This document shows, piece after piece, positions 1,410 through 61,344 of a DNA stretch of 64,000 bases. Made by a program: the position numbers and the translations under genes. Under the pieces are notes generated by a model. That model made no database searches. It was not told where the DNA came from and was given only the letters and a program-made list of their open reading frames with translations. The stretch comes from a virus (lineage: Duplodnaviria > Caudoviricetes), in IMG/VR virus record IMGVR_UViG_3300015214_000001, positions 32,001-96,000 of that record, one strand, 5' to 3'. Position 1 is the first letter of the stretch; each line of letters begins with the position of its first letter.

Positions 1410-1437
1410 TTGACAAATATTCGGGGGGGGGTAGAAT
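1410..1437 (+). promoter_or_regulatory. sigma70-type promoter with G9 tract in the spacer (16-bp spacer)
   Basis: TTGACA(1410-1415) aatattc G9(1423-1431) TAGAAT(1432-1437), upstream of aaggag RBS. Confidence 0.8.
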
Positions 1438-1494
1438 GACCGTGTTGTTTAAAAGTAGGAATAAACCTGCAAAATAATTAAAGGAGCTTAATTG

Positions 1495-1743
1495 ATGGGA
1501 ACTTACTATAATCCACCCGATGATTTACCAAAGCTAGAGGGAGTCCGCAAGATTGAGGGTGATGGCTATGAATCATTAGTCACTCAACTTGGTGAGGATG
1601 AGTTGTTGTTTGGACTATATGATCGTGTGTTCTTTAAGAACGCGGTTCACTTATATTCAGAAGGTGAATACAATGAGTTTGAGCGACAAGGGTTAGTTCG
1701 ACTAGGCTTTTATGCCGTCCCTTCTAAACACATCGCGCGTTAA
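1495..1743 (+). CDS. hypothetical protein driven by poly-G promoter
   Basis: aaggag RBS then ATG at 1495; own promoter and terminator. Confidence 0.75.
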   Translation: MGTYYNPPDDLPKLEGVRKIEGDGYESLVTQLGEDELLFGLYDRVFFKNAVHLYSEGEYNEFERQGLVRLGFYAVPSKHIAR

Positions 1744-1749
1744 CTCTCT

Positions 1750-1789
1750 AATCAAAAAGAGGCTTTTAATTAGAAGCCTCTTTTTGATT
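1750..1789. terminator. bidirectional terminator
   Basis: AATCAAAAAGAGGCTT/AAGCCTCTTTTTGATT inverted repeat between convergent genes. Confidence 0.8.
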
Positions 1790-1866
1790 CGTGTGTATTG
1801 GATATTATAATCTAATCAAATTAGATGTCGCCATCGTACAGATTATGAATGACAACGCAATGTGCG

Positions 1867-2257
1867 CTAAAACTTTTTACCATCTGGCTTCTTGCGGTTT
1901 TCCATGTTGTGATCGGCACGCTGTTTGTTATATGCTAGTTTTTCATCCAATGCGCCGCCAATATCTAGTTTCATATATCCAGCAAGATCAAGAATTCTAA
2001 TGATGGCATCGGCTAATTCCACCTCAATCATTAGACGGTTCTTTAGATGGTCATCCATTAATCCTTTACGATAGCCTTCGGTAGCCTCAGCAATTTCTGT
2101 GACTATCAGCATCATCTTCTCTACGACATTGACAATGGAGGGTTCTCCTGTAGTTAGATCAGTGTACCAACCACGCTCAACATTGGCTTCATGTATCTCC
2201 GTTGCTAACGCATTAAGGGTGGCGGGGGGGGGTAATACCAGCGTCTTTTATCTGCAT
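1867..2257 (-). CDS. MazG-like NTP pyrophosphohydrolase, frameshifted at a C9 tract (plus-strand G9, 2224-2232)
   Basis: ATG at 2257 with ggag RBS reads MQIKDAGITPPRHP-stop. One fewer C gives ITPPATLNALATEIHEANVERGWY...LIVTEIAEATEGYRK...EVELADAIIRILD, with MazG ExxE...ExxD motifs. Confidence 0.75.
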
Positions 2258-2270
2258 TATTATTCTCCTA

Positions 2271-3104
2271 TTAGCTGTTTTTGTTTAGATCGGGATTAGG
2301 CATAACCTGTTTCAGTTGAGCGCCTAATAGTAGTAAGTGATTACTGATTTCGTAGCGATTCACCACTTGATGGTTTTCTTTTCCATCAATGCTAGTATAA
2401 ACCATGTTGAAATGGGAACGATATTTTAATGTAACAGATGATATATAACTAGTGACTGCAATATCAAATAATAATCCATTACTATCAACACAAGAGAAAA
2501 TAGCTTGCATTTTTTCCTTATGGTTAACAAGCATATTTAACCCTTGTTCGATGTTGTCGAAACATAGCATTGAGCTTATATCATAATCAGTTTCAAAGCG
2601 TTGAATTGTATCCAAATATAATTTATTTAATGTCTCAAGATCGTTGATATATTTGTCTTTGCATGTCTGAGCGATAACATTGGCAAAGCTAGTTCTTCCT
2701 GAATGATGCAGAAAACTAGCATATTGCTCAAATACGTTAGAGGTGTAATCAACGATGTTTGGGTTAAGGCTGATCTGATCTTGAATTACCTGTTTAATTT
2801 TATCATGACCAGAAAAAGCATTGCATGTGGGGTTAGATTTTAATTGGAGGTGTCGATATGAACCACTGACGATAGAAATATAACGCCCCATTAATCGTAG
2901 TATTTGCGCTGATGTTAACCGTCTGTATTGTGACCAATTACTTAATTCATCAAACGCCCTACTTGCAACATACTCAACAAATCCGTCATTGTCAGATAAG
3001 CCATTCTCTTGGATGTATTGCTCAACAAGTTTTACTGAGTTATCTAGGACAATATCTGATAAGGCTAAAAATTCCATATGGTTAACTGGGATTTTAACTA
3101 TCAT
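2271..3104 (-). CDS. hypothetical protein
   Basis: 277-aa ORF in minus-strand operon. Confidence 0.7.
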   Translation of the reverse strand: MIVKIPVNHMEFLALSDIVLDNSVKLVEQYIQENGLSDNDGFVEYVASRAFDELSNWSQYRRLTSAQILRLMGRYISIVSGSYRHLQLKSNPTCNAFSGHDKIKQVIQDQISLNPNIVDYTSNVFEQYASFLHHSGRTSFANVIAQTCKDKYINDLETLNKLYLDTIQRFETDYDISSMLCFDNIEQGLNMLVNHKEKMQAIFSCVDSNGLLFDIAVTSYISSVTLKYRSHFNMVYTSIDGKENHQVVNRYEISNHLLLLGAQLKQVMPNPDLNKNS

Positions 3105-3119
3105 TCTGATTAACTTTCT

Positions 3120-3638
3120 CTATGAAATGTCTTGAGGCGAAAATAATGCAAGGGCTTTATTCCACTCATCAGGGTTATCTGCATTATCGTCAGTGTCATA
3201 TAAGATAGAAATGTCAAAAAGAATGTCATGTGAGGCGATATTCTCATCTCTACTTAACGCAACTATTAGACGTGGGGTATCCGAGTTATTCGTTGCATAT
3301 ATCTCAATAGCAACTATCGGCAACGGGCAATTATACTCTATTGGCCCACGAAAGAATGGCGCTACGTCAATTAAACCCTTTTGTCCAGAAGGTAACGCCG
3401 ACTTATCCACAATAGCCTGTATAGTCGCAAGAATGTGGTTACGTCTATGTGTTAATGGAACAGTCGCTGATTCTGGGACAGCTCCACGATGCTCATATTC
3501 TGTCAACGCTGGCTGTCTAGCGATCAGCAGGACTAATTCGCTAGTGACCTTATTTAATGTCTTATGTGATCGACAAAAACCATCAATGATAGTTGCCGCA
3601 TCCTCATCAGCAAATCGGCTTTTAATCACGCACTCCAT
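3120..3638 (-). CDS. hypothetical protein
   Basis: 172-aa ORF, aaggt RBS. Confidence 0.65.
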   Translation of the reverse strand: MECVIKSRFADEDAATIIDGFCRSHKTLNKVTSELVLLIARQPALTEYEHRGAVPESATVPLTHRRNHILATIQAIVDKSALPSGQKGLIDVAPFFRGPIEYNCPLPIVAIEIYATNNSDTPRLIVALSRDENIASHDILFDISILYDTDDNADNPDEWNKALALFSPQDIS

Positions 3639-3710
3639 ATTAAACCTTTCAATCTATAATTAGATTTATTTATTAAGGTCAGTACGTATTAATAAACTAA
3701 CCTTAAATTA

Positions 3711-3741: not shown

Positions 3742-4116
3742 TTATCTCCACTGGTCATAGTCATAGCATTGGAATTTAGATGGTTGCGGGGACTTACACA
3801 ACACAGACCAAGCCTGATTTGAGATTACATCCATAACAATGTAAATGAAGTAATCTGGCTTATCAAATCCCCCTGATTGCCAAATGCGATCCATTACCAC
3901 AAATTCACCTTCTGCTCCTGCTACATATGTTTGAATAAACTGAATTGCTACTTCGTCTTTTTGTTCCTGCCCTAAAGCCGAGAAGATATTGGACACGAAT
4001 ACAAAAAGGATGAAAGTAACAAAAAGAAATATCGCAATGGTAAGAAAACGCTCAAACGACTTTCCATCACCTGCACCACTTAACGAGGTATTACTAAACC
4101 TTTGCTCTGCCATCAT
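3742..4116 (-). CDS. membrane-anchored hypothetical protein driven by poly-G promoter
   Basis: hydrophobic segment FLTIAIFLFVTFILFVFVSNIF. Confidence 0.7.
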   Translation of the reverse strand: MMAEQRFSNTSLSGAGDGKSFERFLTIAIFLFVTFILFVFVSNIFSALGQEQKDEVAIQFIQTYVAGAEGEFVVMDRIWQSGGFDKPDYFIYIVMDVISNQAWSVLCKSPQPSKFQCYDYDQWR

Positions 4117-4152: not shown

Positions 4153-4181
4153 ATTTTACCCCCCCCCGAATAACTTGTCAA
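4153..4181 (-). promoter_or_regulatory. sigma70-type promoter with G9 tract in the spacer (17-bp spacer)
   Basis: minus strand TTGACA(4181-4176) agttattc G9(4167-4159) TAAAAT(4158-4153). Confidence 0.8.
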
Positions 4182-5526: not shown

Positions 5527-6593
5527 CTAATCCACATTCATGGCAAAGTATAAGGATTTCAGCGAATCCTCATCAACTTCTTTATCCTCTGATACTTCTT
5601 CGCCTTCCCAAAACAAAGTATTTCGATATTCATTTAATGCAGACAAAGTAGAGCCTATATCTCTAAACTGTTCATGCTTAGTTTCATTCATGCAAATTGC
5701 GACTCGCATCATCTTAAATAGCTCGTAATTAGGCACTAAATACCCCTTTGCTTGGTATTTCAACAAACGTTTCATACCACCAATTGGGCAATGAACAATC
5801 CGAACGTTAGCTACCTTTTGAGCAAAATCAGGGAAGAACCCATCATCAACTACTGCATTATCTAAGTCGATTAGCGCTGCGCGACAAACTGTTAGGTCAA
5901 ATGAATTAATGATTTCTTCTGGTGGGCCATATGTCTGACCATTCGCTAATTGACGCGGAACAATAAGTTGTAATACTGGCGCATCTTGACTGCTTTCAGG
6001 TGTTGGGTAAAATGTTTTGACGATTTCATTGTTAAGCGAGGCGCTATCTATCACATACTCAACTTCTCCCCCCCCAAGTTAAATGCAGAAGATAATATCG
6101 CATCATAAATACCATCAAATTGTTCCGCATCACGACAGAATATATCAATATCCTTCCGTTTGGGGTTATCTGCAATGATGTGACGTGTCCCGCTTGAATA
6201 AGTGTCAGGTGCAATCATCCAAGCGACAAACCCTCCCGCGAAAATTGCACCCAGTGGGGTTAATCGTTGATAAATAGATGAAAGAAATTCTTTACCCCGA
6301 ATAACAGGTGTGATTTCAAAGCTAAAAATACCCGACAGATCATCATCTGATGTCCGATCAGTAAATGAATGAAACTTGTTTTGGTATCCCGAGTAATATG
6401 GCACAACAACATCGGATTGTGAGTGCTTAAACATTTTTTCAACCGCTTTACCATCATCATCATACATCCTGATCGTAAAACTCTTATCATCAATCGCAAC
6501 AATCACGCACTTGCGATTATCATCATGTGCTTTTACTACTTGCCCTAAGAAAATACTACCTACTCGTTTTTCTGAGCGATAAATATCAGTCAT
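5527..6593 (-). CDS. nucleotidyltransferase-like protein (Pol beta/CCA-adding-like motifs), split at G8 tract 6068-6075
   Basis: N-half has IFAGGFV...KDIDIF; C-half has INSFDLTVC. One extra G joins them as FNLGGGEVEYVIDSASL. Confidence 0.65.
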
Positions 6594-9291: not shown

Positions 9292-9996
9292 TCATTCGGT
9301 CAAGAGTGATTTACCTGCGCTCATCGTCTCCAGTGGGTATGGATATGTCTCAACCCAGTTGCTACTAATTCCACGCACGCCTGTAACTTCAAGTTCATCA
9401 GCCCGACTATCCATGCCTCGGGCGCGATATTCTTGCACAATTGCTTCGATCACTCTGTAAATATTGATATACGCCGACGCATTATCAGGTTTTTCGTAAG
9501 TCACCGTTTTAAGTAAATCATCATCATAACCACCAACACCAAGTAACACAATGAAAGTGCTTACTCGATTGGCATTGATGAACGTTGTTAGATACAACGT
9601 TTCTAATAATGGTTCGTCAATGCCGTAGCCAATATAATATTTTGACGTGTTTCCATCACGCATAACAACAGGGATGTTGCTCATATAAATTGCGTTAGGA
9701 TCAGGGATGATTTCTTCATCGTTATGAGGGTTTTCATCTACAGGGATTAATTGGAGTTGCTGAGAATACTCATTAACACCACGATTGAAGCAGACAATGA
9801 TTTTTTGAATATCATCATCATCAAACTCAAGGAGGCCCTTTTCCACTAACACCTGACGAACTTTCGTTTCAATGCGGTCAGTATACATATGGGGCGTATT
9901 GTTGAATTCACCTGCGTAAGCATAACCGATATTTCGGAATTCTGCAAGTAAGTTTAGCAAATTCGTTGGTGTATAGGGGTTATTATCGTTGGACAT
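9292..9996 (-). CDS. hypothetical protein driven by poly-G promoter
   Basis: 234-aa ORF, aaggag RBS, downstream hairpin at about 9245-9278. Confidence 0.75.
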   Translation of the reverse strand: MSNDNNPYTPTNLLNLLAEFRNIGYAYAGEFNNTPHMYTDRIETKVRQVLVEKGLLEFDDDDIQKIIVCFNRGVNEYSQQLQLIPVDENPHNDEEIIPDPNAIYMSNIPVVMRDGNTSKYYIGYGIDEPLLETLYLTTFINANRVSTFIVLLGVGGYDDDLLKTVTYEKPDNASAYINIYRVIEAIVQEYRARGMDSRADELEVTGVRGISSNWVETYPYPLETMSAGKSLLTE

Positions 9997-10037: not shown

Positions 10038-10067
10038 ATTCTACCCCCCCCACAATGAATCTGTCAA
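10038..10067 (-). promoter_or_regulatory. sigma70-type promoter with G8 tract in the spacer (18-bp spacer)
   Basis: minus strand TTGACA(10067-10062) gattcattgt G8(10051-10044) TAGAAT(10043-10038). Confidence 0.8.
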
Positions 10068-14242: not shown

Positions 14243-15396
14243 TTAAAAACGTGGAGTTCCACGTTTTTCTATCTCGCGCTCCCATATATGTAAGGGGCGT
14301 TTCTTGCCATCTTTAACAGCGATCAATTGAAACCCTAAGCTATTAAAAAATTGATTAGCTTGCTCATTGTTGTAAACACAAGTCGCACGCTTAGGAGATG
14401 CTGGCAATGATGCTATTAACCCACTGCCAACCCTATTGCCCATCATTTGTGCTTTCTGATCTACTGCGATTTCATAGATTGTTATCCAACCATCGCGTCG
14501 CAAGTGGAAACGACAAAAACCTACAACACTGCCATTATGTTCAGCTACGATTAATTCTTTTTTCGCAATACTATCACGTAGCGATGGATAACGCAAGTAT
14601 CCGATTGCATCTGGATGCTGATTAGCAATCTGCTTAATGGCAACTATATCACTCTCTACGCCCCACCTAATGCCAGCAACAGTTCTATTCCAGTAAGATT
14701 TCCAATTCATTACGGATAATTCAAAACAAAAGTAAGGCACATCGTTATGAATGTCAGAAAATTTACTTTCACTCAAAAGTGGAAAGTGCCGATTAACGTA
14801 ACCTGAATAGTTACCACTATTGCCACAGAAAAATCCACATGGGTAATTTGCCATTTTTTGAATAAAATTTCCATCCAGACTTACAACATTTTCTATCATA
14901 TGGAATAACTTCATTTGTCTTTGGGGTGATCCACCCAATAAATGCGTAGGCCTAGCGCCAAACTCTTTAGGATTAACTGATGTGCCTTTAGCATATTGAG
15001 TATTACCGCCAGTAGCTACCGAATAAGCTAACCTAATCGGCTTTCCGTTAATGCTATCGGGGATTCGATCAATAATACCCTTCACCTTAGGGATAATTAA
15101 TACTGCTTCTGATACGAGCTTAGATATAACATCAGCCCATTGCATAACCTCATCAAATTGTTCTTCTCGTTCTAAATCTTTGACTGTGGCTAACCTTAAA
15201 TTATGTTCAGAAACAGCATTGGCGTATTGCTCCAATGTCAAGTTGGGGTTATTCCAGTCTTGATCTGCAAATTCTATAGGGTGATGGTTGTTAAGTGGCA
15301 ATTGTGATCCATAGGTTAATCCGTGTCGGATCGCTATCTCAGCAAAGCGCTGATTATTTCCAGCGCAATAAATTATTTCGGGGGGGGTAGAGCCAT
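14243..15396 (-). CDS. putative TGT-like (TIM-barrel) domain fused to C-terminal GNAT acetyltransferase; frameshifted at codon 6 by a C8 tract (plus-strand G8, 15380-15387)
   Basis: ATG 15396 (aagga upstream) gives MALPPPK-stop; one extra C gives MALPPPEIIYCAGNNQRFAEIA... into the 352-aa ORF. N-part has HLLGGSP and SLDGN; C-part has VVGFC, TIYEIAVDQKAQ..G..VGSGL, NEQANQFFNSLGF (GNAT motifs A/B). Confidence 0.65.
14245..14268. repeat. dispersed palindrome, copy 2
   Basis: aaaaacgtggagttccacgttttt overlapping the last codons of the GNAT-fusion gene. Confidence 0.85.
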
Positions 15397-15484: not shown

Positions 15485-16567
15485 TTATTCGTTGGCGAAC
15501 GTGTTAATTTCTCGTAACTTTGTCAGTATAGGCTCATCAGAAACGAAATCATCATCTACATTAACATAATCATTCCAAGAGATACCTAGCGCCTTCGAGA
15601 CCTCTTTAGCCATATATGATTTGGCGCATTTTTGACAATACCCTACGCGGGTTTCCTTATTCCAAGAGAATGCTGGATTCGTGTTGTCATGAGCATGATT
15701 GCCAAATGGACAAACTGTTAATTCAGAGAAGCCTCTATTATCAAAGTTGCTAACTCCCAACTTATCTATGATTAGATCATAATAGTCGTTATAAGTATTT
15801 TCGGACAGGCTAATTTCACCTGCGGTTTGTTCTTGAACTATTGACGATTCCTGAACAAGTAAGGCAATTTGATTTGCCAGTTCTTCAAGGTCGATTGGAT
15901 CATATTTAATTGTCCAATACCCACCAGCAGGAGCGCTATAGCTATGGCGCTCTACATATTTCCAATATATTTCTTCCGCGTTATCACTTGTCTTGTAAAC
16001 TTTTGATAAGGCAAGATCAACTTCTTCATATTGCCAATCCCAATCTTCTTTGATGGTGTCAGGATTAACAACACATCCTAACACCTTACCATCAGTGAAC
16101 GCTACGCGAACCTCTAATGCGTAGTGGGTTCTTCCAGTCTGGGAGCGACGAAACAAATATACTGTATCATCTGGACTGATGACAAATTGTTCGTCATGTG
16201 TTCCCATCTCGTCTTGCCAATAAGTAGGCAGATTGTGTAAGACAAAAAGGTTCTTGCGACGATAAAGACCACTCGGTCTTGAAGCATATAGCCATGGTTC
16301 ACCCTGGCTATTTAATGATACCAACACGCGCTCTTTGCGACGAGTATCATCGAATTCTGTAACCCACAGTTCTTCTTCTCCATTATGAGTAGCAGCCACA
16401 ATGGATACCTGATTGTGGAGAAACCAACGATCATGGCTGTTATCATCTGCTCTTAACTTGGATGTTTTTCCTGCTTCGGTGATGATATTATGCAGCTTCT
16501 TTGCAACTGCATAACGATTGTTATGGTTGCTATCTGTCAATTGGCTCACTAAATGTTTGATGTCCAT
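15485..16567 (-). CDS. hypothetical protein with a C-terminal primase-type zinc-binding domain
   Basis: C-terminal CPFGNHAHDNTNPAFSWN...CQKC nearly identical to the module inside the primase-helicase; poly-G promoter upstream. Confidence 0.75.
   Translation of the reverse strand: MDIKHLVSQLTDSNHNNRYAVAKKLHNIITEAGKTSKLRADDNSHDRWFLHNQVSIVAATHNGEEELWVTEFDDTRRKERVLVSLNSQGEPWLYASRPSGLYRRKNLFVLHNLPTYWQDEMGTHDEQFVISPDDTVYLFRRSQTGRTHYALEVRVAFTDGKVLGCVVNPDTIKEDWDWQYEEVDLALSKVYKTSDNAEEIYWKYVERHSYSAPAGGYWTIKYDPIDLEELANQIALLVQESSIVQEQTAGEISLSENTYNDYYDLIIDKLGVSNFDNRGFSELTVCPFGNHAHDNTNPAFSWNKETRVGYCQKCAKSYMAKEVSKALGISWNDYVNVDDDFVSDEPILTKLREINTFANE
15559..15781. repeat. 223-bp direct repeat, copy A (zinc-finger module)
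   Basis: aligns without gaps to 44894-45116 with about 17 substitutions (about 92% identity, counted by eye). Confidence 0.9.
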
Positions 16568-16605: not shown

Positions 16606-16635
16606 ATTCTACCCCCCCCACATCGGGATCGTCAA
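16606..16635 (-). promoter_or_regulatory. sigma70-type promoter with G8 tract in the spacer (18-bp spacer)
   Basis: minus strand TTGACG(16635-16630) atcccgatgt G8(16619-16612) TAGAAT(16611-16606); leader nearly identical to that of the 10038 promoter. Confidence 0.75.
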
Positions 16636-18400: not shown

Positions 18401-19672
18401 TTAAGGTTGCTCAACGGCATTTGAATGAATATTAGCTGAATGTGCCATGTCATAGGTCATAATGTAAGGCACTGCACCATACCTGCCGACTAAATAACCC
18501 ATAGATAACCATTCCCCTTTGCGTTTCTCGTAATCACTTAATGGGGTTAAAATGGAGCGTCTCTTTTCGTTGGCGCTAATGTCTGGTCTGATGAATTCGA
18601 CAAACCAAACTTGCCCCCTATCTAACCAATTCATCACGTTAACCTGTTGTGTAGCTAGTAGAACCTGCGAGCCAGTTATATTAAATTCGCTATCATGAAC
18701 TAGATCAAGGATAGCATCACAAACGGCAGGATGTAGACCTTCACCATAATTATCTATGACGATAAAGCGTGGATTTTGTCTATTAAATTCTTGATGCAAT
18801 AAACAAAATGTTGCAATCGCTTCTTTCGCGCCGATTGGTAAATCACTCCATAAGATCAACTTGTTATGCACACTATCACGAAATGCCAACTCAGTTGATT
18901 TTACTAATTTTAAGTTGAGATCAGTCTGTGCAGCGCCTACACCTTTAGGGTAGTGTGGTGTAATATCTTGAATCTCAACATTTGATAACTCAAAATCACT
19001 AGCATATAAAAAGCAAGTTAGGGCTTGGCGCAAGGTTTCATTATGGAGCAAGCCACGAATGGCTTCTCGTTTATTGTCCTCATCAACAAAACAGAATAAC
19101 TTTTTAATGTATGCGTGGATCGTCTTTAACTGCGGAACATATCGGCTGGCATGTCCCAAGAACAATGCCTTGTATTGCATATCGTCTTTGCGTAATACTG
19201 AGGAAGGACTTCCCTTCAATGAGCGACCAAAGTTAAATTCATGGCTATTTCTTGTAAATAGCATCTGTGCGCGTTTATTAGGGTAGATATATAACCATTC
19301 TTCCAAAATATCAGCATCAGGTGATAAGACAAACCCATATTGATGTTTCACGCCATCTAGCAGAAACGTCAATTCTAGTTCAATCGGCATAGATGAATTA
19401 CCCCAATGAGTGTGTGGCTCAATGATTTCCTTGCTGAGACTACCAGTATAATTATCTGACTTCGCTACGAGGTCATAGAAAAATTTCATACCCGATAAGA
19501 AGTTAGACTTCCCTGCGCTGTTTTTTCCAAATAACGCATTCATAGATAACAAGGGCATTGCTTCTGTCCCAGTAAGATTTCGTGAGTTTTTCTCACCCTT
19601 AACCTGTGTAAACAGTAGGATTGTTTCTGTCTTAAATGATTTATATCCAGACAATTTAAACTTAATAATCAT
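18401..19672 (-). CDS. AAA_21-family (RloA/AbiEii-like) ABC-type ATPase with atypical Walker B
   Basis: GYKSFK, GKNSAGKSNFL (Walker A), ILEEWLY, IVIDNYGEGLHP, QVLLATQ, DRGQVWFV, YLVGRYGAVP. Confidence 0.8.
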   Translation of the reverse strand: MIIKFKLSGYKSFKTETILLFTQVKGEKNSRNLTGTEAMPLLSMNALFGKNSAGKSNFLSGMKFFYDLVAKSDNYTGSLSKEIIEPHTHWGNSSMPIELELTFLLDGVKHQYGFVLSPDADILEEWLYIYPNKRAQMLFTRNSHEFNFGRSLKGSPSSVLRKDDMQYKALFLGHASRYVPQLKTIHAYIKKLFCFVDEDNKREAIRGLLHNETLRQALTCFLYASDFELSNVEIQDITPHYPKGVGAAQTDLNLKLVKSTELAFRDSVHNKLILWSDLPIGAKEAIATFCLLHQEFNRQNPRFIVIDNYGEGLHPAVCDAILDLVHDSEFNITGSQVLLATQQVNVMNWLDRGQVWFVEFIRPDISANEKRRSILTPLSDYEKRKGEWLSMGYLVGRYGAVPYIMTYDMAHSANIHSNAVEQP

Positions 19673-36790: not shown

Positions 36791-36837
36791 ACAAAAAGGG
36801 GGTGGAGAGCATTAGTTCTCCACCCCCCCTTTTTGTT
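36790..36837. terminator. bidirectional terminator between nrdJ and the C5-MTase
   Basis: AACAAAAAGGGGGTGGAGA / TTCTCCACCCCCCCTTTTTGTT; arms carry G5 versus C7. Confidence 0.8.
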
Positions 36838-36910: not shown

Positions 36911-37932
36911 TCAAATTGCTGATAGTTCATCTGTCGCATTAGTTTTCCCTCTCATACCAGATAGAGATTTGAATACTTCTTTCCCTATAGCATAAGCCAT
37001 ATTTACAGGAACTGCGTTGCCAATTTGCCGATACTGGCTACTCATGCTGCCTGCGAATTGCCAATCATCAGGGAATGTTTGAATCCGCGCATTTTCGCGC
37101 ACACTCATCGGTCTATCTTCTAAAGGATGACAACGCTCTGTAAATCGCTGGCTTGGCGCTGTTAACACTGTTAAACTAGGCTCATCCATGCTTAGTCGCC
37201 TTAAAACACCATAACTCCCGCCATGAGGAATAATCTTTTCAACATAATCTTGAACGATCTCAGGTGGGGCATGTCGCCAATGTCCACCTTGTGGGATATG
37301 GCTAAATAGGCGTTTCTTAACATCTGGGTACTTCGCGCATAAACTGTCTGGCACATTTTTAATAACATCACCCAATACTGGCCTATTTTGTAATGGGGGG
37401 GGTAATTGAAGTCAATATCAAGATCATATCTTGTGCCGATCAAAATTGCGCGTTCTCTTTTCTGCGGAACATTGTAATCCCACGCATTTAATACTTTCCA
37501 GACAACTCTATAGCCAATATCTTCAAAAATAGACAGAATTGTATTGATTGTTCTGCCTTTATCGTGCGTTGCTAAACCTTTGACATTCTCAAAAATAAAC
37601 ATCTTAGGTTTGAAGTGCTGCAAGAAACGAGCATACTCATAAAACATCGTTCCACGTACATCTTCAAACCCCATCTTTTTACCAGCATAAGAAAAACTTT
37701 GACATGGTGGCCCGCCAGACAAAACATCAATTTCACCATTATATACATCGCTAGGATCAACTATTGCGATGTCGTTGCATACCACGTTCCAATCAGGCCG
37801 ATTGATCTTGAGCGTATTTGATGAATGTTTATCGTTATCAATCGTTGCTACGGCATTAAAACCAGCCATTTCTAACCCCAACGCAAGGCCACCTGCACCA
37901 CAGAACAATTCCAACACAGTTGGACTACTCAT
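36911..37932 (-). CDS. C5-cytosine DNA methyltransferase 1, frameshifted at a C8 tract (plus-strand G8, 37395-37402)
   Basis: ELFCGAGG, GGPPCQSFS, FENVKG, PQKRER in 37932-37403; RPMSVRENARIQTFPD and YRQIGNAVP in the next frame. One extra C joins them as YPPPLQNRPVLGDVI. Confidence 0.9.
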
Positions 37933-40691: not shown

Positions 40692-40898
40692 CTAAACCCA
40701 TCTATCTTTATTGAAAACGCTATTTCTTGCATAAAAACCAACAACCCAATACTTATAGTATTCCACCTCTAATTCGACAAGTGTTTGCAATCCTAAAAAA
40801 TCTGGATGAGGCTTTGGTTTATACTTACCCAGTAAGCCTTGCCTATAGCCACGTTCAGTCGTTGTCTCCATCCTATCACCCCTTCTTAGCAATAACAA
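40692..40898 (-). CDS. small hypothetical protein
   Basis: about 59-68-aa ORF between methyltransferase genes. Confidence 0.5.
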   Translation of the reverse strand: MLLLRRGDRMETTTERGYRQGLLGKYKPKPHPDFLGLQTLVELEVEYYKYWVVGFYARNSVFNKDRWV

Positions 40899-42102
40899 TA
40901 TACTCTTTATTCATTGTGGTTTGTTTTTCACCAATTACATTAGAAGGCGCATTCAAGATAGGCATCGCTTTTGCTGATAATAAGCGTTCTATAGTGATTT
41001 CATGACGCAGACCATTCAATTCTAATTGTTCAGCGATAAATTGATCTGTTGGCATAATTTCGCCACACACTCTGCGATTACCCACCACGTAAATAGCTGT
41101 CCCATTTTCGTTAACTCTATCGGAGACATCACTGATAGAGTGCGCCAAATCAGAGTAAAACGAATAAACAGCCTGTGATCGCTTTTCATCTCGCGGTTTT
41201 AGACTTAACATCAGACGATCTATCACCTCAGAATGAAATTGCCTGTGGTGGTTTATACCACCCATCATAAGTCGATCCATATTTCCAACGTCATTAAATC
41301 CTGCTAAATACTCGTTTGCAAACCGCGAGAATTCACCATACGCAACCGTTGTTTTACTGTCCCCATACGGTGGACTAGTAAGCACAACATCATATTTTTC
41401 GAGATTGTTAATTTCATCATTAATGCTAACCGTTATTTCTTTGGCATGTTGTAAATAATGTTGTTCATAAGATAAAATAATACTATCAAAGTGTTTTAAG
41501 AACAACTCAATCATATCAGGTTTAAACTTTGCGATTTGCTTTGGGGTCATTCGGTAGCGCTTAAACTCACCCTTGCGAACATAAGATGCTGACCGAATTG
41601 CATTTACGAACGCAAGATCAACTAGTTGTTTACTGCTTGAAATACCCCCCCCCGTAGCTTTAGCAATAATTTCACTTAACATATAAATATCGTCAAGAAC
41701 TTGTTGAGAGAACCAATAAGATTGGTTTTTAAATAGCTGACGACATTTACTGGGCGATGCTATTTGTTCTGTAGCGATTAGTTCCTTTATGGTTTGTTTC
41801 ATATGATTTATATCGTCTTGGTCAATCAATGTGAAACGAACAGTCGATATTAACCTAGCTAAAGGGTTAATGTCTGCTCCATAAAAACTTTTTACCCCGT
41901 TCTCTAATCCAGCAACAAATGACGATCCAGTTCCGCAATAGGGGTCTAACATAGAACTAGGTCGCAAATCTAAATCCTCAAATAACTTAATCCCTATCTG
42001 TGGCAACATAGTCGCAGGATAGGGATGTAACTTTGGATATTTATTATGATAACCCTCACTAATGAAGTCATAGTGAGGGTTATATTCTACTTTATAAGCC
42101 AT
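40876..42102 (-). CDS. N4-cytosine-type (amino) DNA methyltransferase, in frame across G9 tract 41645-41653
   Basis: LHPYPA, LDPYCGTGS (motif I), GADINPLA, VLTSPPYGD (motif IV), YVVGNR; the G9 encodes TGGG. Confidence 0.85.
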   Translation of the reverse strand: MAYKVEYNPHYDFISEGYHNKYPKLHPYPATMLPQIGIKLFEDLDLRPSSMLDPYCGTGSSFVAGLENGVKSFYGADINPLARLISTVRFTLIDQDDINHMKQTIKELIATEQIASPSKCRQLFKNQSYWFSQQVLDDIYMLSEIIAKATGGGISSSKQLVDLAFVNAIRSASYVRKGEFKRYRMTPKQIAKFKPDMIELFLKHFDSIILSYEQHYLQHAKEITVSINDEINNLEKYDVVLTSPPYGDSKTTVAYGEFSRFANEYLAGFNDVGNMDRLMMGGINHHRQFHSEVIDRLMLSLKPRDEKRSQAVYSFYSDLAHSISDVSDRVNENGTAIYVVGNRRVCGEIMPTDQFIAEQLELNGLRHEITIERLLSAKAMPILNAPSNVIGEKQTTMNKEYIVIAKKG

Positions 42103-43697: not shown

Positions 43698-45959
43698 TTA
43701 CGACTTTTTAGCCTTGAGTAGTGCGAACTCCTCTGGTGATATTAATGTCATGCGCTCTAAGTCGATTAATACTCTTGGAGCATCATCTTCTGTGCCAGTC
43801 TTTCCTTCACTATTTTTCAACACACCAATTGCTACCTCTCGGTAATATTTTTCTCTATGCTTTCCTGTGACAGGATCAAGCACAGAAATACTCATAATTT
43901 CTGGCAATGGGTTCACTGATAAAAACAGGTTCAGCACATCATCTCTAACATTTACGGCTGATGTGCTATCTAAAAACGTTGAACCATCATGGACACCACG
44001 AGTCGCTGATTTAGTAGACTGAGTAGCAACAAATGATAGCCAGCCATTTCTAAGACCTTCTTCTTTAATCATATCTAGCGTATCTTTCTCAGACCAGCGA
44101 TACGCCTCATCAGGTGGTTTAATCATTTGCAAATAGTCAATAATAACTACGTGAGGAGTATTGCCTCTTTCAGATAACCGTTCATGTGCTTCGCGCAACT
44201 GCGCCAACAAATCCGTAACAGTTGCAGAAAACGCCTTTAAAAAGATCACCTGCCCAGTCCACTGGGTGCGAATTTTGTTCAGTGCGTTAACGGCATATCC
44301 CATTTTTGCATCGGAAACGCCTTTGCCAAATATTCTTTTATCCTCAGCTGTAAGCTCTCCTGTTTCAATTAAATGTTGTTCATGGTAATGCCGCTGCAAT
44401 GATGTCATCTCGGGCATTCGCAAACCACCATGCGTTTGAACAATTCTATCGGCATGACGTTCAGGAGACCATTCAGGAGACCAAACCATTACATTATAGC
44501 CCTGTTTAGCCCACTCAGAGATCATATAGGTTAAAAATGTGGTCTTAAAACCGCCAGATACACCCATGACACCAGCCATGCAAGGACGCGCAAATGCGTT
44601 AGCATTACCATCTAAATGTCCAATAGCGCTACGTAATGGATTAGGAATTGGCGGATACTTAGGTAGTTGTTGTCCCGTGAGTCGCAATTCATAGTCATCA
44701 ATTGCGGCTGTCATATCCATCCATAGCTCATCATCAGACGCGCCAGCATATTGCATCCGACGATTAGCTACATGAACCATATGTTTGTTGCCTAAAACTT
44801 GCCCATTTGCTGCTTCTACTTTTGCTCTTTTGTCGGCAACAATTTGATTTTCAGACGTGTTATTACTTGGCAGTAAAGTTGACTCTCTTTTATCATTAAC
44901 ATAATCATTCCAAGAGATACCTAGTGCCTCCGAGACCTCTTTTGTCATATATGATTTGGCACATTTTTGACAATGCCCTACGCGGGTTTCCTTATTCCAA
45001 GAGAACGCTGGATTCGTGTTGTCATGAGCATGGTTTCCAAATGGGCAAACTGTTAGTTCAGAAAACCCTCTATTATTAAAGTTGCTAACCCCTAACTTAT
45101 CTATGATTAGATCATATAATTCTGGTTTGAAGTAATCATTTGTGCGTGCGTAATGGATTTGCTCAGGGGTAGCTAAAACCCATTTCTCCATCTTATTTAA
45201 CTCGTGCATATAAATGTTTTCATTGCACCCACAAGCAAGCCAGAAGTCATTATTATCTTTAATGACTTTTCCTTCCAGAAAGAAAGGAACTTTATAAGCG
45301 CTTGCCTGAATTTTAAACTTATGCAACAAGTCTAAAAACTTAGTTGTGACTTGGACACCAGCATTATCGTTATCAGGATAAAACCGCACAACTGTCACCT
45401 TCATATTAGCCAGTTGAACTGGAATATCAGCATCTAGCCGATTGCCAGCGGCAAATAAACCGACTGCATTCCAAATGCCAGCCGCATATGCCGTCATTGT
45501 GTCAATGTCACCTTCAAATACGTGCAAGACACCGCCATTGCGACTAACAGCTTGCGCTATTTTTTGGTAGTCTGGCATATAAGTAATCGGCATGACACCG
45601 CCTGGACGGAGTGATTCTGGTGAGTTATAGAACCGCGCCGCATTGGGATGTTTTTCACGCGAATGCGGTAAACGTCGCGCACGGTAGATGATCGGATAAT
45701 CCACTGCATTAACCATGCTGTTGGTATTATGATTGATAGATGGTGGATATGCACATGGATAAATCAGATACTGACCATCACGAGATGTTCTAAATCCTAT
45801 CGTTTCCCAAGTATCCTGAGGAATACCGCGCTGAATTAAAAAGTCAGCAGTAGTTTTATCCAGTGTTAATTCATCAGGCCTATCAAATAGCTCTAATAAG
45901 AACTTACTATCTTCAACTTCTTTCTCTTGCTTCGGAACAACTGGCATTGATGTAGACAT
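43698..45959 (-). CDS. primase-helicase: TOPRIM primase, internal zinc-binding domain, SF4 (DnaB-like) helicase
   Basis: FEGDIDTM and YPDNDNAG (TOPRIM); CPF..H..D..P.F...CQKC; GVSGGFKT (Walker A), WSPEW, IIDYLQ (Walker B), VATQ, VLKN. Confidence 0.85.
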   Translation of the reverse strand: MSTSMPVVPKQEKEVEDSKFLLELFDRPDELTLDKTTADFLIQRGIPQDTWETIGFRTSRDGQYLIYPCAYPPSINHNTNSMVNAVDYPIIYRARRLPHSREKHPNAARFYNSPESLRPGGVMPITYMPDYQKIAQAVSRNGGVLHVFEGDIDTMTAYAAGIWNAVGLFAAGNRLDADIPVQLANMKVTVVRFYPDNDNAGVQVTTKFLDLLHKFKIQASAYKVPFFLEGKVIKDNNDFWLACGCNENIYMHELNKMEKWVLATPEQIHYARTNDYFKPELYDLIIDKLGVSNFNNRGFSELTVCPFGNHAHDNTNPAFSWNKETRVGHCQKCAKSYMTKEVSEALGISWNDYVNDKRESTLLPSNNTSENQIVADKRAKVEAANGQVLGNKHMVHVANRRMQYAGASDDELWMDMTAAIDDYELRLTGQQLPKYPPIPNPLRSAIGHLDGNANAFARPCMAGVMGVSGGFKTTFLTYMISEWAKQGYNVMVWSPEWSPERHADRIVQTHGGLRMPEMTSLQRHYHEQHLIETGELTAEDKRIFGKGVSDAKMGYAVNALNKIRTQWTGQVIFLKAFSATVTDLLAQLREAHERLSERGNTPHVVIIDYLQMIKPPDEAYRWSEKDTLDMIKEEGLRNGWLSFVATQSTKSATRGVHDGSTFLDSTSAVNVRDDVLNLFLSVNPLPEIMSISVLDPVTGKHREKYYREVAIGVLKNSEGKTGTEDDAPRVLIDLERMTLISPEEFALLKAKKS
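44894..45116. repeat. 223-bp direct repeat, copy B (zinc-finger module in the primase-helicase)
   Basis: about 92% identical to 15559-15781. Confidence 0.9.
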
Positions 45960-48743: not shown

Positions 48744-50336
48744 TTAGTTGTTGCGTCTCATCATTTGCGCCATGATGGATTTAATATCTTCTGCTTCGCT
48801 ATCCGAGATTGCTTGGATTGATTGAGCATCACTTTGTGGCAATACTTGTTTTTTCACCGTCTTTTTGAACAATGAGCTTGGGCTACCAAGATACAAAGCG
48901 AGCCATTTATTCATTGTTTCAGCTGTGCAAGTAGCATCCTGTGATAGTTTAGCGCCTTGCGGTGAAAACATCCACCCGTCACGGCGACCATTCTTCCCAA
49001 ATAAACTATCTAATAGCATTTTAGGATTTGGCTCAACAAATGGTTTTTTGCGATCATAACTAATGATTTCTCCCATATCAGGAGTGCCGATATAATTGCC
49101 ATCAGCTGATAATAAGTCATTCGTAGCAAAACTACGTGCAGTCTCACGCATTTTTGTCGCTACGCCAGATTCGCGTGCATACATCCGCAAAATTTCGTAT
49201 GAGCTTAAATGGGATAACTCTGGCTCTTTACCAGTGATTTTTTCAACAATCGTCCGAACCCATAGCTCTGTATTCTTTTCAAGCTCAGACTTATCTTTAT
49301 TGACGATAACGACCCCATCAGGTTGCGATTGGATATTTCCCTTTGTCCCTACTGATGGTCGTGGAGTGCGAACTGGTGGCTCACCTTGCTTTGTGCGGCT
49401 TGGCGTAGACGGCAAGGATGGGATACTAGATGCGCGTCTTTGTGAATTTTGTAAATTCGGCGGCGCGGAATTGGCTTCTTTTTCTTTTTGTAACAATTCA
49501 AAATCGCTACCTAACAAGTATTCCAGACTCAACTCAAATTCTTCGCCTTCGATGCCGTCAGGCAATAAAGATACTTTAGTATCTTTATCAATTAATTCTA
49601 GTTCTTTTATTCTGATTCTTTCCCCCCAAAATTCTTGGGGGGGGCCCCCCAAAGAATTTATACCCCCCTCCCCTAAAATTTTTGAGGGGGGTATTTCTGC
49701 TGTATAAGATAATTGACCTTCTTCTGAGGCAAGCCACTCTTTCATTTCTTCAAATCGAAAACGCATATACCAATTCGGTTGATATTTCATCCAGAATTGA
49801 TGCCACCACTGACATTGGTATATTAATCCAGCAAACAAATATTCATCTGTTTCTGACTTACTATAATCTCCTCTACGACAAGTCAAAGCGCCCTTTTCTA
49901 TCAATTGGTTCTTGATATTTGTAATGCTTTGCTCGTTCTTATAATTAAGCAAGTGCATTAATGTTCGAGTGCTAGGTTTTGCAGCGCCTTGAGCTGTATC
50001 AAATCTGAACATCATCACTCGCTCAATGAAAGCCATTTCGTTGATAGTTATTGGGTCTGCTTGACCGTGTTTCGGTGCAGGGAAAAATGTTACTTTATCA
50101 ATGCGTCCATTATCTCGATAATCAAGGCGATAGTCGTACTGTGAACGTTCGTAGTATTGGATATTTAGTAATACATATCCTGGCACATGCAGATAGTACC
50201 GATCTTTAAAATCTTGTTCAAAGTCCCCCCAACGCGATACAAATGGCGTGGATTGGTTCTTACTAGACATAACTTTTTGCTCCTTGTTGCAAACAATAAA
50301 AATAATACTGAAAAACAATTGTTCTGTATTTGCCAA
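48744..50336 (-). CDS. putative replication initiator (N-terminal winged helix, internal iteron-like repeats)
   Basis: KPSTRTLMHLLNY...SITNIKNQLIEKGAL resembles a Rep HTH; G/C-run inverted repeats at 49621-49695; lies upstream of radA and the primase-helicase. Confidence 0.55.
   Translation of the reverse strand: MANTEQLFFSIIFIVCNKEQKVMSSKNQSTPFVSRWGDFEQDFKDRYYLHVPGYVLLNIQYYERSQYDYRLDYRDNGRIDKVTFFPAPKHGQADPITINEMAFIERVMMFRFDTAQGAAKPSTRTLMHLLNYKNEQSITNIKNQLIEKGALTCRRGDYSKSETDEYLFAGLIYQCQWWHQFWMKYQPNWYMRFRFEEMKEWLASEEGQLSYTAEIPPSKILGEGGINSLGGPPQEFWGERIRIKELELIDKDTKVSLLPDGIEGEEFELSLEYLLGSDFELLQKEKEANSAPPNLQNSQRRASSIPSLPSTPSRTKQGEPPVRTPRPSVGTKGNIQSQPDGVVIVNKDKSELEKNTELWVRTIVEKITGKEPELSHLSSYEILRMYARESGVATKMRETARSFATNDLLSADGNYIGTPDMGEIISYDRKKPFVEPNPKMLLDSLFGKNGRRDGWMFSPQGAKLSQDATCTAETMNKWLALYLGSPSSLFKKTVKKQVLPQSDAQSIQAISDSEAEDIKSIMAQMMRRNN
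49621..49695. repeat. iteron-like C/G-run repeats inside the putative initiator gene
   Basis: CCCCCCAAAATTCTTGGGGGGGG, CCCCCCAAAGAATTT, TACCCCCCTC-CCCTAAAATTTTT-GAGGGGGGTA. Confidence 0.65.
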
Positions 50337-59025: not shown

Positions 59026-59619
59026 ATGAGTTATAAATACACATTCCCTAATTCACGAACAATCAAGGCGTTATTGTCCCGAGTATCTGAGTATGATGGG
59101 TTAAAACCACATTATTTAGAGTTTGGGAATACCTATGGGCGGCGTGAAGTTAGATCGCCCGAAGATTTTCTTGAAATTTGGTATGATTTTGTTTCACGTG
59201 TGGATGATGCTGATGGGCGTAAGTTATTAATCGCCAATGTTCACTCATATATCGGTTATCTGGTTAAGTCATATAACCCATTTTTCTACGCTCAGATAAT
59301 ATCTCTCTATGTAGAGCCTGATATTAATGTTTTGGTGACGAATGATGAGGCTCAAGTTGAGCTTGAATTGCCGACAGATGAACAGCCGATTGCCGATCCG
59401 TTAGACGACATTGAGAATGAAACAGAAGTTGATGTAGATAGTAGCAGTGAACAAAGCGATGAAAGTGTAAATGTTGATATATCGCTAGATGAAATTAACA
59501 ATGCGACAGTTAATAAGCTCAAAGAGATTGCCACTGAATATGGCATTGATTTAGAAGGAAAATCTAAAAAAGATGACATTAAATTATCAATCGTTGAGTT
59601 TTTCGGTTTTTCTTCATAA
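59026..59619 (+). CDS. protein with C-terminal Rho-N/HeH-like domain
   Basis: INNATVNKLKEIATEYGIDLEGKSKKDDIK after an acidic linker. Confidence 0.65.
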   Translation: MSYKYTFPNSRTIKALLSRVSEYDGLKPHYLEFGNTYGRREVRSPEDFLEIWYDFVSRVDDADGRKLLIANVHSYIGYLVKSYNPFFYAQIISLYVEPDINVLVTNDEAQVELELPTDEQPIADPLDDIENETEVDVDSSSEQSDESVNVDISLDEINNATVNKLKEIATEYGIDLEGKSKKDDIKLSIVEFFGFSS

Positions 59620-59626
59620 TTAGGGG

Positions 59627-59654
59627 TTGCATTATAAAGCGCCTTGTGTATAAT
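59627..59654 (+). promoter_or_regulatory. promoter of the tRNA/ncRNA cluster
   Basis: TTGCAT-16-TATAAT. Confidence 0.6.
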
Positions 59655-59795
59655 GTTAATTATGAAGTGTGATGATGTTCTACGCACGAGAGAGTAGATA
59701 GTTACACTTCATGAAAGCTAATGGGCTTACTTCTTTATCATGTTTAGTTGTTTTTTAAGTTGCACTATACCGTAACATACAGTGCAACTTAAAAA

Positions 59796-59867
59796 GTCCT
59801 TGTAGCTCAGTGGATAGAGCAGTAGTTTCCTAAACTATGAGCGCAGGTTCGAGTCCTGCCAAGGGCA
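59796..59867 (+). tRNA. tRNA-Arg(CCT)
   Basis: cloverleaf; GTAGT-TTCCTAA-ACTAT anticodon arm; GCAGG-TTCGAGT-CCTGC; CCA not encoded. Confidence 0.9.
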
Positions 59868-59990
59868 TAGGGTTCATCCCCTAGAAAATGGAAACTTTTC
59901 ATTTTCTCCTTGTGTTGGGGTGGTTGGTTTTGATCTGGACAGTCTTTCGCCAGCCACCCCTTTTAAAACACAATTTTAACAAAACCATAC

Positions 59991-60063
59991 GGGCCTATAG
60001 CTTAATGGTCAAAGCCGCGACCTCATAAGTCGTTGAGTCTAGGTTCGAATCCTAGTGGGCCCA
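59991..60063 (+). tRNA. tRNA with CAT anticodon, most likely Ile2 (lysidine), otherwise elongator Met
   Basis: GGGCCTA/TGGGCCC acceptor, GCGAC-CTCATAA-GTCGT; G1-C72 paired and no GGG/CCC anticodon stem, so not an initiator. Confidence 0.85.
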
Positions 60064-60068
60064 CATAT

Positions 60069-60141
60069 ACCCTCATAGTTCAGCGGAAAGAACAATAGCC
60101 TTCTAAGCTATGTGTCGCAGGTTCGAGTCCTGCTGAGGGTA
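60069..60141 (+). tRNA. tRNA-Arg(TCT)
   Basis: ACCCTCA/TGAGGGT acceptor; ATAGC-CTTCTAA-GCTAT; GCAGG-TTCGAGT-CCTGC. Confidence 0.9.
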
Positions 60142-60144
60142 CTT

Positions 60145-60210
60145 AGAGAAGTGGTGGTCTTATTGCTAGTGGATACTAGTGGTAAAACGGTTCAACTCCG
60201 TTGCTTCTCT
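60145..60210 (+). ncRNA. D-armless tRNA-like RNA without anticodon loop
   Basis: AGAGAAGT/GCTTCTCT acceptor-like stem; TTATTGCTAGT-GGAT-ACTAGTGGTAA hairpin; AACGG-TTCAACT-CCGTT T-arm. Confidence 0.65.
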
Positions 60211-60214
60211 CAAT

Positions 60215-60545
60215 GGCGGATGTGCGAGGCATTTTCGTCAGTCCTGCGAATGGTGTATAGCAGGTACGTTTAGATGTGACTTGGGCAGGATTTACTGCAC
60301 CTAATAAAGCCATTCACACATCTGAATTAGCAAGAGAGAAATGGCGAGTCCTCCTAACACCAATAGGGGGCAAATATATGTTTTGGGGTTGTGACCAGAC
60401 ACACGTATTGCCTATCGTGGCATCAGGTAGCAATAACGTATAAATAGGTGCAAGTCTTAGCCTTTTGGAGCGCCAACTGTGCTGGCTGTGAAGAAGAAGG
60501 GCTTTTATAGGCGGGGCGCATCTGAATAGCACAGAGCGCCCTTTT
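60215..60545 (+). ncRNA. candidate large structured ncRNA (about 330 nt)
   Basis: GC-richer segment without a plus-strand ORF; several long-range helices and apparent pseudoknots (see findings). Confidence 0.6.
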
Positions 60546-60579
60546 TAAATTAAAATTCATGTTTATGAGGTAAAAATAG

Positions 60580-61344
60580 ATGGCTGTCAATTGGTCACAG
60601 ATGTTTATAGATGAAAATGGCAATATTGTAACGTTATCATATAACGACATATATAGTGTAGATGACGAGAAGTGGTTAGACAAAAAGACTATCCAAGATT
60701 TTCTGAATGATCTCGCGGGATACTATGAGCTAGTGCCATATACCGCGAAAAGCGTAGTGGGGGGGGTAGAATCTGAAAAGACAAGTGAGCCAACCCCTCT
60801 CAGTAATGGCGTTGCTGATTATGAATTTGAAGCAATTGCACGCTTAGAGGTGGCAGAGAAAGATGATGGTGTAGATACAGGTAATACTGTTCCTGCCATC
60901 GCCCTCTATCCTCCGATGAATAAAGAAGGTACGTTTGGTGTACACCCCAGTATGAAAATCTACCTTAACGAAGGCCTCAATGACCCTATTATTCCAGCGA
61001 TTGATAAGTGGTTAGCGCCTTATGGTTTGTCGTTTGCAAAATTGCCGATGCCAAACACAACAACGGTAAACCCACGCAAACCAGGTGTTAAGAATAACAC
61101 GCACGTCTACTTTGAAGATCACGCCAAGTCTGAAACGTTTAACAATCTGAAAGCGTGGGAAAAAAGACCAGCCTTGCGAGTCGGTTATTACTGGAAGAAA
61201 AATAAGGATGGGACTAAGAAATATGCCACACCTTATTTTAAATTGGATGAGGTTCATTTCTATACCTTAGACGAGATTAATAAGAAGCGCGAAAGTAGGT
61301 CTTTTCAGTACCCACCACGTCCGATTGACATCGTAGGTGATTAG
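60580..61344 (+). CDS. hypothetical protein, in frame across G8 tract 60759-60766
   Basis: 254-aa ORF, gaggt RBS, terminator at 61348-61372. Confidence 0.75.
   Translation: MAVNWSQMFIDENGNIVTLSYNDIYSVDDEKWLDKKTIQDFLNDLAGYYELVPYTAKSVVGGVESEKTSEPTPLSNGVADYEFEAIARLEVAEKDDGVDTGNTVPAIALYPPMNKEGTFGVHPSMKIYLNEGLNDPIIPAIDKWLAPYGLSFAKLPMPNTTTVNPRKPGVKNNTHVYFEDHAKSETFNNLKAWEKRPALRVGYYWKKNKDGTKKYATPYFKLDEVHFYTLDEINKKRESRSFQYPPRPIDIVGD

Follow-up and report, generated by a model that had tools for sequence, protein, structure and literature searches.

The stretch of DNA analyzed here, referred to as the window, covers 64,000 nucleotides (nt), bases 32001-96000 of a single virus contig of 208,458 bp with a GC content of 39%, which belongs to an uncultivated jumbo phage. 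Its most conspicuous feature is a set of twelve G/C runs of 8-9 nt, which are candidate slipped-strand switches of promoters and genes. The tracts are named after their starting positions in the window:

G9 tracts: 1423, 2224, 4159 and 41645
G8 tracts: 6068, 10044, 15380, 16612, 37395, 40518, 49637 and 60759

A preliminary description of the same DNA had listed twelve runs, with about 0.1 expected by chance and ten of them reading G8-9-TA on the G strand. Every coordinate was confirmed, and dinucleotide-preserving shuffles of the window give an expectation of 0.15, against 16 overlapping G8 matches that make up the 12 tracts. The motif GGGGGGGGTA is found ten times where the same shuffles predict 0.01, and ten tracts are indeed of the G8-9-TA form. 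Four tracts lie in spacers between -35 and -10 elements and eight in coding sequences, the placement originally proposed. As in known contingency loci, the tracts are longer than chance allows, and a change of one unit alters either the reading frame (eight coding sequences, in silico) or the promoter geometry (four spacers).

Across the whole genome, the lengths of G/C runs are bimodal with a mode at 8: there are 51 runs of 5 nt, 10 of 6, 3 of 7, 29 of 8, 9 of 9, and one of 11. The runs of at least 7 nt thus number 42, of which about 40 belong to the G8-9 class and 12 are inside the window. GGG accounts for only 17% of the glycine codons and CCC for 11% of the proline codons, so that pure G/C runs go against the codon usage of the phage. 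The core replication and nucleotide genes of the window, assigned through PHROGs and Pfam, are free of tracts, as had been claimed: none was found in RecJ, the dnaN clamp, nrdJ, thyX, the radA-like gene, dut, or the primase-helicase gene.

Tracts in promoter spacers

The tracts at 1423, 4159, 10044 and 16612 are embedded in the pattern TTGAC(A/G)-N7/8/10-G8/9-TA(G/A)AAT, where the tract occupies the 3' half of the spacer, right up to the -10 element. Each is a homopolymer between the recognizable -35 and -10 elements of a gene-proximal promoter, the arrangement known from porA of Neisseria meningitidis, and a same-strand open reading frame (ORF) begins 42-60 nt downstream of each:

1410..1437, plus strand: promoter TTGACA-16-TAGAAT with G9 at 1423-1431, driving ORF 1492-1743 (83 aa)
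4153..4181, minus strand: promoter TTGACA-17-TAAAAT with G9 at 4159-4167, driving ORF 3742-4116; same tract length in two other assemblies
10038..10067, minus strand: promoter TTGACA-18-TAGAAT with G8 at 10044-10051, driving ORF 9292-9996; same tract length in three other assemblies
16606..16635, minus strand: promoter TTGACG-18-TAGAAT with G8 at 16612-16619, driving ORF 15485-16567

A generic promoter-consensus scan of the first 18 kb places these four among the five best sigma70-like sites. The 3' part of ORF 15485-16567 also contains one copy (15559-15781) of a 223-bp repeat, 92.8% identical to a second copy at 44894-45116 in the primase-helicase gene region.

The same design extends over the genome, where 14 of the 22 matches to TTGAC(A/T)-N14-20-TAnAAT have a G7-9 run abutting the -10 element, while shuffles are expected to yield 4.9 matches in all. 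Promoter-type tracts number about 20, around half of all tracts, and every one of them faces a same-strand ORF starting 21-110 nt downstream. They also have CTTAACA-like upstream boxes in common. The length of the tract is held at 8-9, and the remaining part of the spacer measures 7, 8 or 10 nt but never 9; with the modal G8, this gives spacers of 15, 16 or 18 bp, but none of 17. Within the strict pattern, tract promoters have spacers of 15 (six cases), 16 (four), 17 (one) and 18 bp (three), the sole 17-bp spacer being that of tract 4159 (N8 plus G9), whereas the matches that bear no tract are centered on 17 bp. Most tract promoters are therefore one or two steps away from the usual optimum.

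Tracts in coding sequences

Five of the eight tract-bearing coding sequences are broken exactly at the tract, as the preliminary description had it, and both the family matches and the simulation of other tract lengths bear this out. All five, which include two C5-methyltransferases (C5-MTases), are on the minus strand:

1867..2257, minus strand: MazG-like pyrophosphatase gene (PHROG 5658/3301), with C9 at 2224-2232 in codons 9-12
5527..6593, minus strand: gene of about 355 aa without Pfam annotation, split by G8 at 6068-6075 into ORFs of 180 and 175 aa
14243..15396, minus strand: DUF6610 plus GNAT acetyltransferase gene, with C8 at 15380-15387 in codons 4-6 after ATG 15396
36911..37932, minus strand: C5-MTase 1, split at C8 37395-37402 in codons 177-179; C9 gives 340 aa
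39644..40701, minus strand: C5-MTase 2 (Pfam), split at G8 40518-40525 in codons 59-61 or thereabouts; G9 gives 352 aa

In silico, changes of one or two bases in the tract toggle all eight coding sequences between a full-length and a truncated product. Four of the breaks are mended by one additional base and that of the MazG-like gene by the loss of one, again in agreement with the earlier account. The downstream halves of the five broken genes remain open and homologous to their families through to the end, and no second lesion was found in the sequences or in the alignments with homologues.

The MazG-like gene starts at ATG 2257 and, with the recorded C9, reaches a stop after 14 aa (OFF); C8 yields a protein of 129 aa, and the gene is ON at either C8 or C11. 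The frame reached at C8 matches PHROG pyrophosphatase families with E = 8e-56. The N half of the gene at 6068 matches the N halves of proteins of 328-356 aa, its C half aligns with residues 190-356 of one of these same proteins (E = 2e-32), and the two ORFs are fused at G9. This gene had been labeled a nucleotidyltransferase, for which there is no family match. The DUF6610-GNAT gene had in turn been described as TGT-like; Pfam instead identifies DUF6610 (E = 1e-24) together with GNAT, and the domain begins upstream of an alternative TTG start. This gene is OFF as recorded, and C9 would join ATG 15396 to the long frame, giving 384 aa.

In C5-MTase 1, positions 2-168 and 217-324 of the PF00145 profile fall on two frames. 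The two pieces are colinear with full-length homologues at about 61% identity, and meet at the junction FNYPP / PPPLQNRPVL without any insertion or deletion. The fragments of C5-MTase 2 correspond to residues 16-57 (N fragment) and 58-323 (C fragment) of M.HhaI, with the tract inside an inserted stretch of some 13 aa that this enzyme lacks. The nrdJ and C5-MTase 1 genes converge, and between them a shorter run, C7 at 36823-36829 (G7 on the minus strand), immediately precedes a hairpin (TGGAGA...TCTCCA); two other assemblies agree on the length of this run.

The other three coding sequences had been described as in frame across their tracts (G9, G8 and G8, respectively), which the length simulation corroborates:

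40876..42102, minus strand: Eco57I-like amino-methyltransferase (amino-MTase), 408 aa, with G9 at 41645-41653 in codons 150-153
48744..50336, minus strand: ORF of 508-530 aa, with C8 at 49637-49644
60580..61344, plus strand: ORF of 254 aa, with G8 at 60759-60766 directly ahead of TAGAAT; only about 62-65 aa remain at G7 or G9

Two of the labels given to these genes could not be confirmed. The supposed N4C-MTase is supported by Pfam only as an Eco57I-like amino-MTase (PF07669, E = 2e-5, just under the curated cutoff; PHROG 18146), and the putative initiator, the 508-530-aa ORF, has no match in Pfam or PHROG. The tract of the latter is also not of the G8-TA type, but the center of a G6/C8 palindrome among G/C runs of 6 nt. 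Between 49620 and 49700 the ORF contains C6, G4AG6, G6C8 and G6 in succession, with the near-perfect palindrome AAATTCTT(T)G6 / C8AAGAATTT, and stays in frame throughout; this cluster might have a structural or an origin-like role within a coding linker. Pfam and PHROG searches gave no family match for the 254-aa ORF either. Upstream of it, positions 59620-60580 form a stretch of about 960 bp without any ORF of at least 70 aa.

Promoter and coding-sequence tracts share their immediate flanks. TA follows the tract in 33 of 41 cases in the genome, including 16 of 21 non-promoter tracts, compared with 15.8% of the G4-6 runs (p = 1.4e-9), and all but one of the 41 have a pyrimidine on the 5' side. 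In C5-MTase 1 the TA belongs to a conserved tyrosine codon ahead of the proline run. C5-MTase 2 (40510-40530) and the amino-MTase (41637-41658), two unrelated MTases 1.1 kb apart, contain an identical cassette, TAC-G8/9-TATTTCAA, of 18-20 nt, which encodes TGGGIS with the same codons in both. Because of these common flanks, of the identical TGGGIS cassette and of the 13-aa insertion in C5-MTase 2, Y-G8/9-TA could be conceived as a portable switch cassette rather than as a series of independently evolved runs, an idea that is nevertheless rather improbable. Such cassettes might spread by short-patch conversion, or the phage might encode a factor that recognizes them, either a targeted mutator or a common regulator. 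If this were true, the phage would hold about 40 independently set switches over putative early genes and DNA-modification genes.

Tract lengths across assemblies and relatives

The record that contains the window comes from JGI/IMG, and the same phage was found in four other assemblies, which were compared with it over 158,101 bp in non-redundant pairwise fashion:

ENA ERZ27247376, contig k141_1857338, 208,473 bp
ENA ERZ27247346, contig k141_1548742, 205,306 bp
Logan assembly of SRR6484323
Logan assembly of SRR8449813

Contig names of the k141 type point to MEGAHIT; Logan assemblies are built from public sequencing runs. To judge from these names, the four are short-read builds. The ENA record shows the genome contig in reverse complement and rotated. 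The contig itself begins within a copy of the terminal promoter tract (genome positions 1-46 overlap 208335-208381, about 46 nt). The genome is therefore either circular in the assembly or terminally redundant, with its break point in a G tract.

No substitution was found in the 158,101 bp, and the sole differences are homopolymer changes of 1 nt. Tract 1423 is G9 in the record and G8 in both ERZ27247376 and SRR6484323; the tract at genome position 15414 is G8 in the record and G7 in ERZ27247376; and that at genome position 13641 is G9 in the record and G8 in SRR8449813. The only difference outside G/C runs is found at window position 19521 (ORF 18401-19672, minus strand), with A6 in the record and A7 in ERZ27247346; there, A7 splits a gene for a 423-aa AAA_21-type ATPase into ORFs of 56 and 379 aa. 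Length thus differs in 4 of 42 comparisons of G/C runs of at least 7 nt, and in 1 of 241 comparisons of other homopolymers (G/C runs of 5-6 nt plus A/T runs of at least 6 nt), a contrast with a Fisher p of 0.0019 between samples that are possibly related. The p value becomes 0.010 once the 13641 case is dropped, which stands at a contig end. A Logan contig of SRR8449813 terminates at the 223-bp repeat mentioned above. The MazG-like tract is C9 in two other assemblies as well.

These comparisons bear directly on whether tract lengths, frameshifts and inter-assembly differences are nothing but homopolymer errors of sequencing or assembly. Such an origin would fit the need for one extra base in four of the five breaks, the restriction of all inter-assembly differences to 1-nt homopolymer changes, which low-coverage error can produce, and the start of the contig inside a tract copy. 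It is, however, very improbable. The positions and almost all the lengths of the tracts are shared by the JGI record and at least four accessions of runs or analyses, Illumina sequencing (a platform deduced from the assembler names) is not expected to err at G8 at normal depth, and 40 tracts with fixed surroundings in promoters and codons are beyond what errors can generate. The caveat raised at first, that long-read under-calling of homopolymers had produced the tract states, largely falls away, since the same states recur in what appear to be short-read builds. The cross-sample comparison of tract lengths that had been called for thus gave a divided answer: three promoter tracts do differ between assemblies, while coding-sequence tracts are identical in all those that cover them.

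Near relatives of the phage were not found, either by megablast of 20 kb against 50,697 phage records or by scanning viral contigs with RadA and metagenome contigs with the primase; tblastn with RadA gave only matches below 40% identity. The only distant relative on a large contig is ctg340021 of ENA ERZ25074695 (234 kb), with a primase 33% identical and the same local gene order, comprising genes for KTSC, dUTPase, RadA-like, ThyX and primase proteins. This contig has no G/C run of at least 6 nt across the syntenic 22 kb, so that the tract system is specific to the lineage of the present phage.

The absence of runs in this relative, which implies that the tracts are not ancient, would also suit a non-adaptive origin, in which a replication or repair bias of phage and host creates mutational hot spots and the five broken genes are recent pseudogenes. 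In the same direction, five of eight coding-sequence tracts are out of frame, near the two-thirds expected for unselected lengths, and all assemblies agree on the OFF states. Still, this origin is quite unlikely: the sharply bimodal lengths, with almost no G7, argue for selection on length over a smooth mutational tail, the runs avoid core replication genes and are contrary to codon usage, and a second lesion is missing from every broken gene.

The promoter architecture, on the other hand, is not confined to this phage. Although the TTGACA/poly-G/TAnAAT pattern has no match in the viral contig collection, TTGACA-N7-10-G8+-TAnAAT, with tracts of G8-11, occurs in at least 120 unrelated metagenome contigs of 25-67% GC. 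Among the matches listed there is nearly always one pattern per metagenome contig and never more than two, and G9 (59) is commoner than G8 (39), contrary to what chance would give. Three pairs of contigs have identical flanks and differ by one G (L015/L024, L058/L105 and L080/L027). Downstream of these promoters are, among others, the gene that opens a capsule locus and genes for a 1,541-aa pilin or adhesin with SpaA folds, for beta-helix surface proteins and for a McrB-like ATPase. From these sequences, a poly-G run abutting the -10 element is probably a general design of phase-variable bacterial promoters, and the unusual feature of the phage is the density of its tracts. The TTGACA-N-polyG-TAnAAT pattern is usable as a search signature for phase-variable promoters in metagenomes.

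Proposed mechanism and comparison with known systems

It is reasonably likely that the G8-9 tracts, as real homopolymers under selection for their length, are contingency switches operating by slipped-strand mispairing, of which there would be two kinds. The first kind would be promoter rheostats, acting on some 20 sigma70-type promoters of small, mostly uncharacterized genes. With the tract in the 3' half of the spacer, the gain or loss of one G would move the spacing among 14-18 bp and thereby tune transcription. The second kind would be frame switches in the genes for the two C5-MTases, the amino-MTase, the MazG-like protein, the DUF6610-GNAT protein and three uncharacterized proteins. Here the tract encodes a run of glycine or proline just past the start codon or in a loop, where a one-base change would truncate or restore the protein. 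Slippage would presumably take place at a useful rate during phage replication, promoter strength would follow tract length, and the mixed progeny would hedge adaptively against, for instance, restriction or further defenses of the host. This keeps much of the phase-variation reading that the preliminary description had put forward, as the tracts are real, length-selected and placed where they affect frame or spacing, but only promoter tracts have been seen to vary. Combinatorial hedging of the DNA-modification repertoire is for this reason still an inference.

Several observations weigh against such switches. All three variable tracts are promoter tracts, and the difference at 13641, located at the end of a Logan contig beside a repeated promoter, is weaker evidence than the others. 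The coding-sequence tracts of the window are invariant in length in each assembly that covers them, and exact-sequence cluster look-ups retrieved only the recorded tract forms in JGI, ENA and Logan. Likewise, the full-length ON form of C5-MTase 1 or of fiber 3 was not found among 5.8 billion protein clusters, and the ON forms of the broken genes are absent from the protein collections, where cluster look-ups returned the recorded states only. ON/OFF switching at the level of the gene is therefore inferred and not observed. Common or related samples may also underlie the other assemblies, which would then not count as independent. Two further points concern the mechanism. Promoters of the N7 class span only 14-16 bp, all under the canonical 17 bp, and thus fit poorly with a simple model in which the spacing moves to its optimum; and the conserved Y-G8-TA context, present even within coding sequences, is not predicted by simple slippage.

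Some of these observations would be better accommodated if the tract were a fixed regulatory element. In this case, the G8 beside the -10 element would be part of a phage promoter class, for example as an operator through which a phage or host protein jointly switches early genes off, or as a substitute for an extended -10, and the coding-sequence tracts would be copies or by-products of it, with the broken genes expressed, if at all, via slippage of the RNA polymerase or the ribosome and not through a heritable change in the DNA. The length of 8-9 and the position abutting the -10 element are conserved while the distance to the -35 element varies (N7, N8, N10), nearly all consensus promoters bear a tract, and the shared CTTAACA-like boxes suggest a single regulated family. 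The constant state of the coding-sequence tracts across assemblies is also in its favor. As for expression of the broken genes, a run of 8-9 matches the length of the RNA-DNA hybrid, favoring transcriptional slippage; at the ribosome, a -1 shift on what is a perfectly slippery run would have the effect required to mend four of the five breaks. The fixed element is nonetheless an unlikely explanation. Three promoter tracts vary in length between assemblies, the same architecture is length-polymorphic elsewhere, ahead of contingency-type genes, and an operator role leaves the tracts at codons 4-12 of accessory genes unexplained. Nor is there a consistent stimulatory RNA structure downstream of the tracts.

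Programmed -1 ribosomal frameshifting, in particular, was not supported: the 66-nt downstream folds of the five broken tracts have z values of -0.7, -2.8, +0.8, -0.3 and +0.7. The sole notable downstream hairpin among the broken genes is that of the DUF6610 site. Unassisted transcriptional or ribosomal slippage could still provide low expression from the OFF alleles.

If the tracts are instead contingency switches and flip usefully, a single burst could contain many combinations of early-gene expression and DNA methylation. The switches of the phage appear to extend over the whole genome: about half would act on promoters of small upstream genes, a class often associated with anti-defense functions, and others on several DNA-modification enzymes. 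For the annotation of phage genomes from metagenomes, the lesson is that a frameshift at a G8-9 tract is not to be set aside as an error or as the mark of a pseudogene.

Repeat slippage as a source of phase variation is classic in bacteria. In phages its recognition is recent, and concerns either single genes for receptor binding or short runs scattered diffusely. The first type is represented by Campylobacter phages of the genus Fletchervirus, whose receptor-binding genes contain hypermutable G tracts of about 7-11 nt (Sorensen et al. 2021, Cell Rep 35:109214, as summarized in bioRxiv 10.1101/2025.10.21.683753 and in PMC12823448). As summarized there, these are lytic phages with G tracts inside genes, as in the phage described here, and length changes create mixed progeny. 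Their switching has been demonstrated experimentally, while the present phage is known from sequence alone. The location also differs from the receptor-binding genes reported there, since here the tracts are found in promoters, MTases, a MazG-like gene and uncharacterized genes, at about 40 per genome and with about half of them in promoters. None of the twelve window tracts is inside a receptor-binding or tail-fiber gene, although two fiber paralogues with G7/G8 are present outside the window.

The second type has been described in T2, T4 and other phages, where homopolymer contingency loci provide reversible frameshifts that hedge against host defense (Gomez, Barrick and Waters 2025, bioRxiv 10.1101/2025.10.21.683753). 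These loci are short runs (at least 6 nt, mostly A/T) that occur in all gene classes at near background density. The same preprint notes poly-G tracts in the methylase gene of BPP-1 and in a baseplate gene of PB1-like phages, and the word "promoter" is absent from its text. Unlike the T2/T4 loci, the present tracts form a distinct G8-9 class, about 80-fold over-represented and with fixed flanks.

Phase variation through the promoter spacer is in turn known from bacteria, with examples such as porA from N. meningitidis (poly-G), hifA/B from H. influenzae (TA repeats), fim from B. pertussis and vlp from M. hyorhinis; in the porA type, a change of 1 nt shifts the spacing and the transcription (PMC3899988). 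The position of the repeat between the -35 and -10 elements is the same in the four window promoters and in the metagenome matches. However, whereas the porA type concerns single promoters of bacterial surface proteins, here about 20 promoters of small uncharacterized genes are involved in one virus. The phage combines both mechanisms, with tracts in promoters as well as in coding sequences, at a density not found described in the literature.

The closest parallel to the tract-bearing MTase genes is found in the phasevarions of Haemophilus, Neisseria and Helicobacter, in which phase-variable Type III or Type I mod MTases reprogram the expression of the host. As in those systems, the phage carries DNA MTase genes with a repeat tract inside the ORF. 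In contrast to the mod genes, the phage enzymes are putative orphan C5- and amino-MTases, whose role would more plausibly be self-protection against restriction. If the tracts do switch as proposed, the system would be a viral counterpart of the phasevarions, and a possible answer to the diversity of restriction systems.

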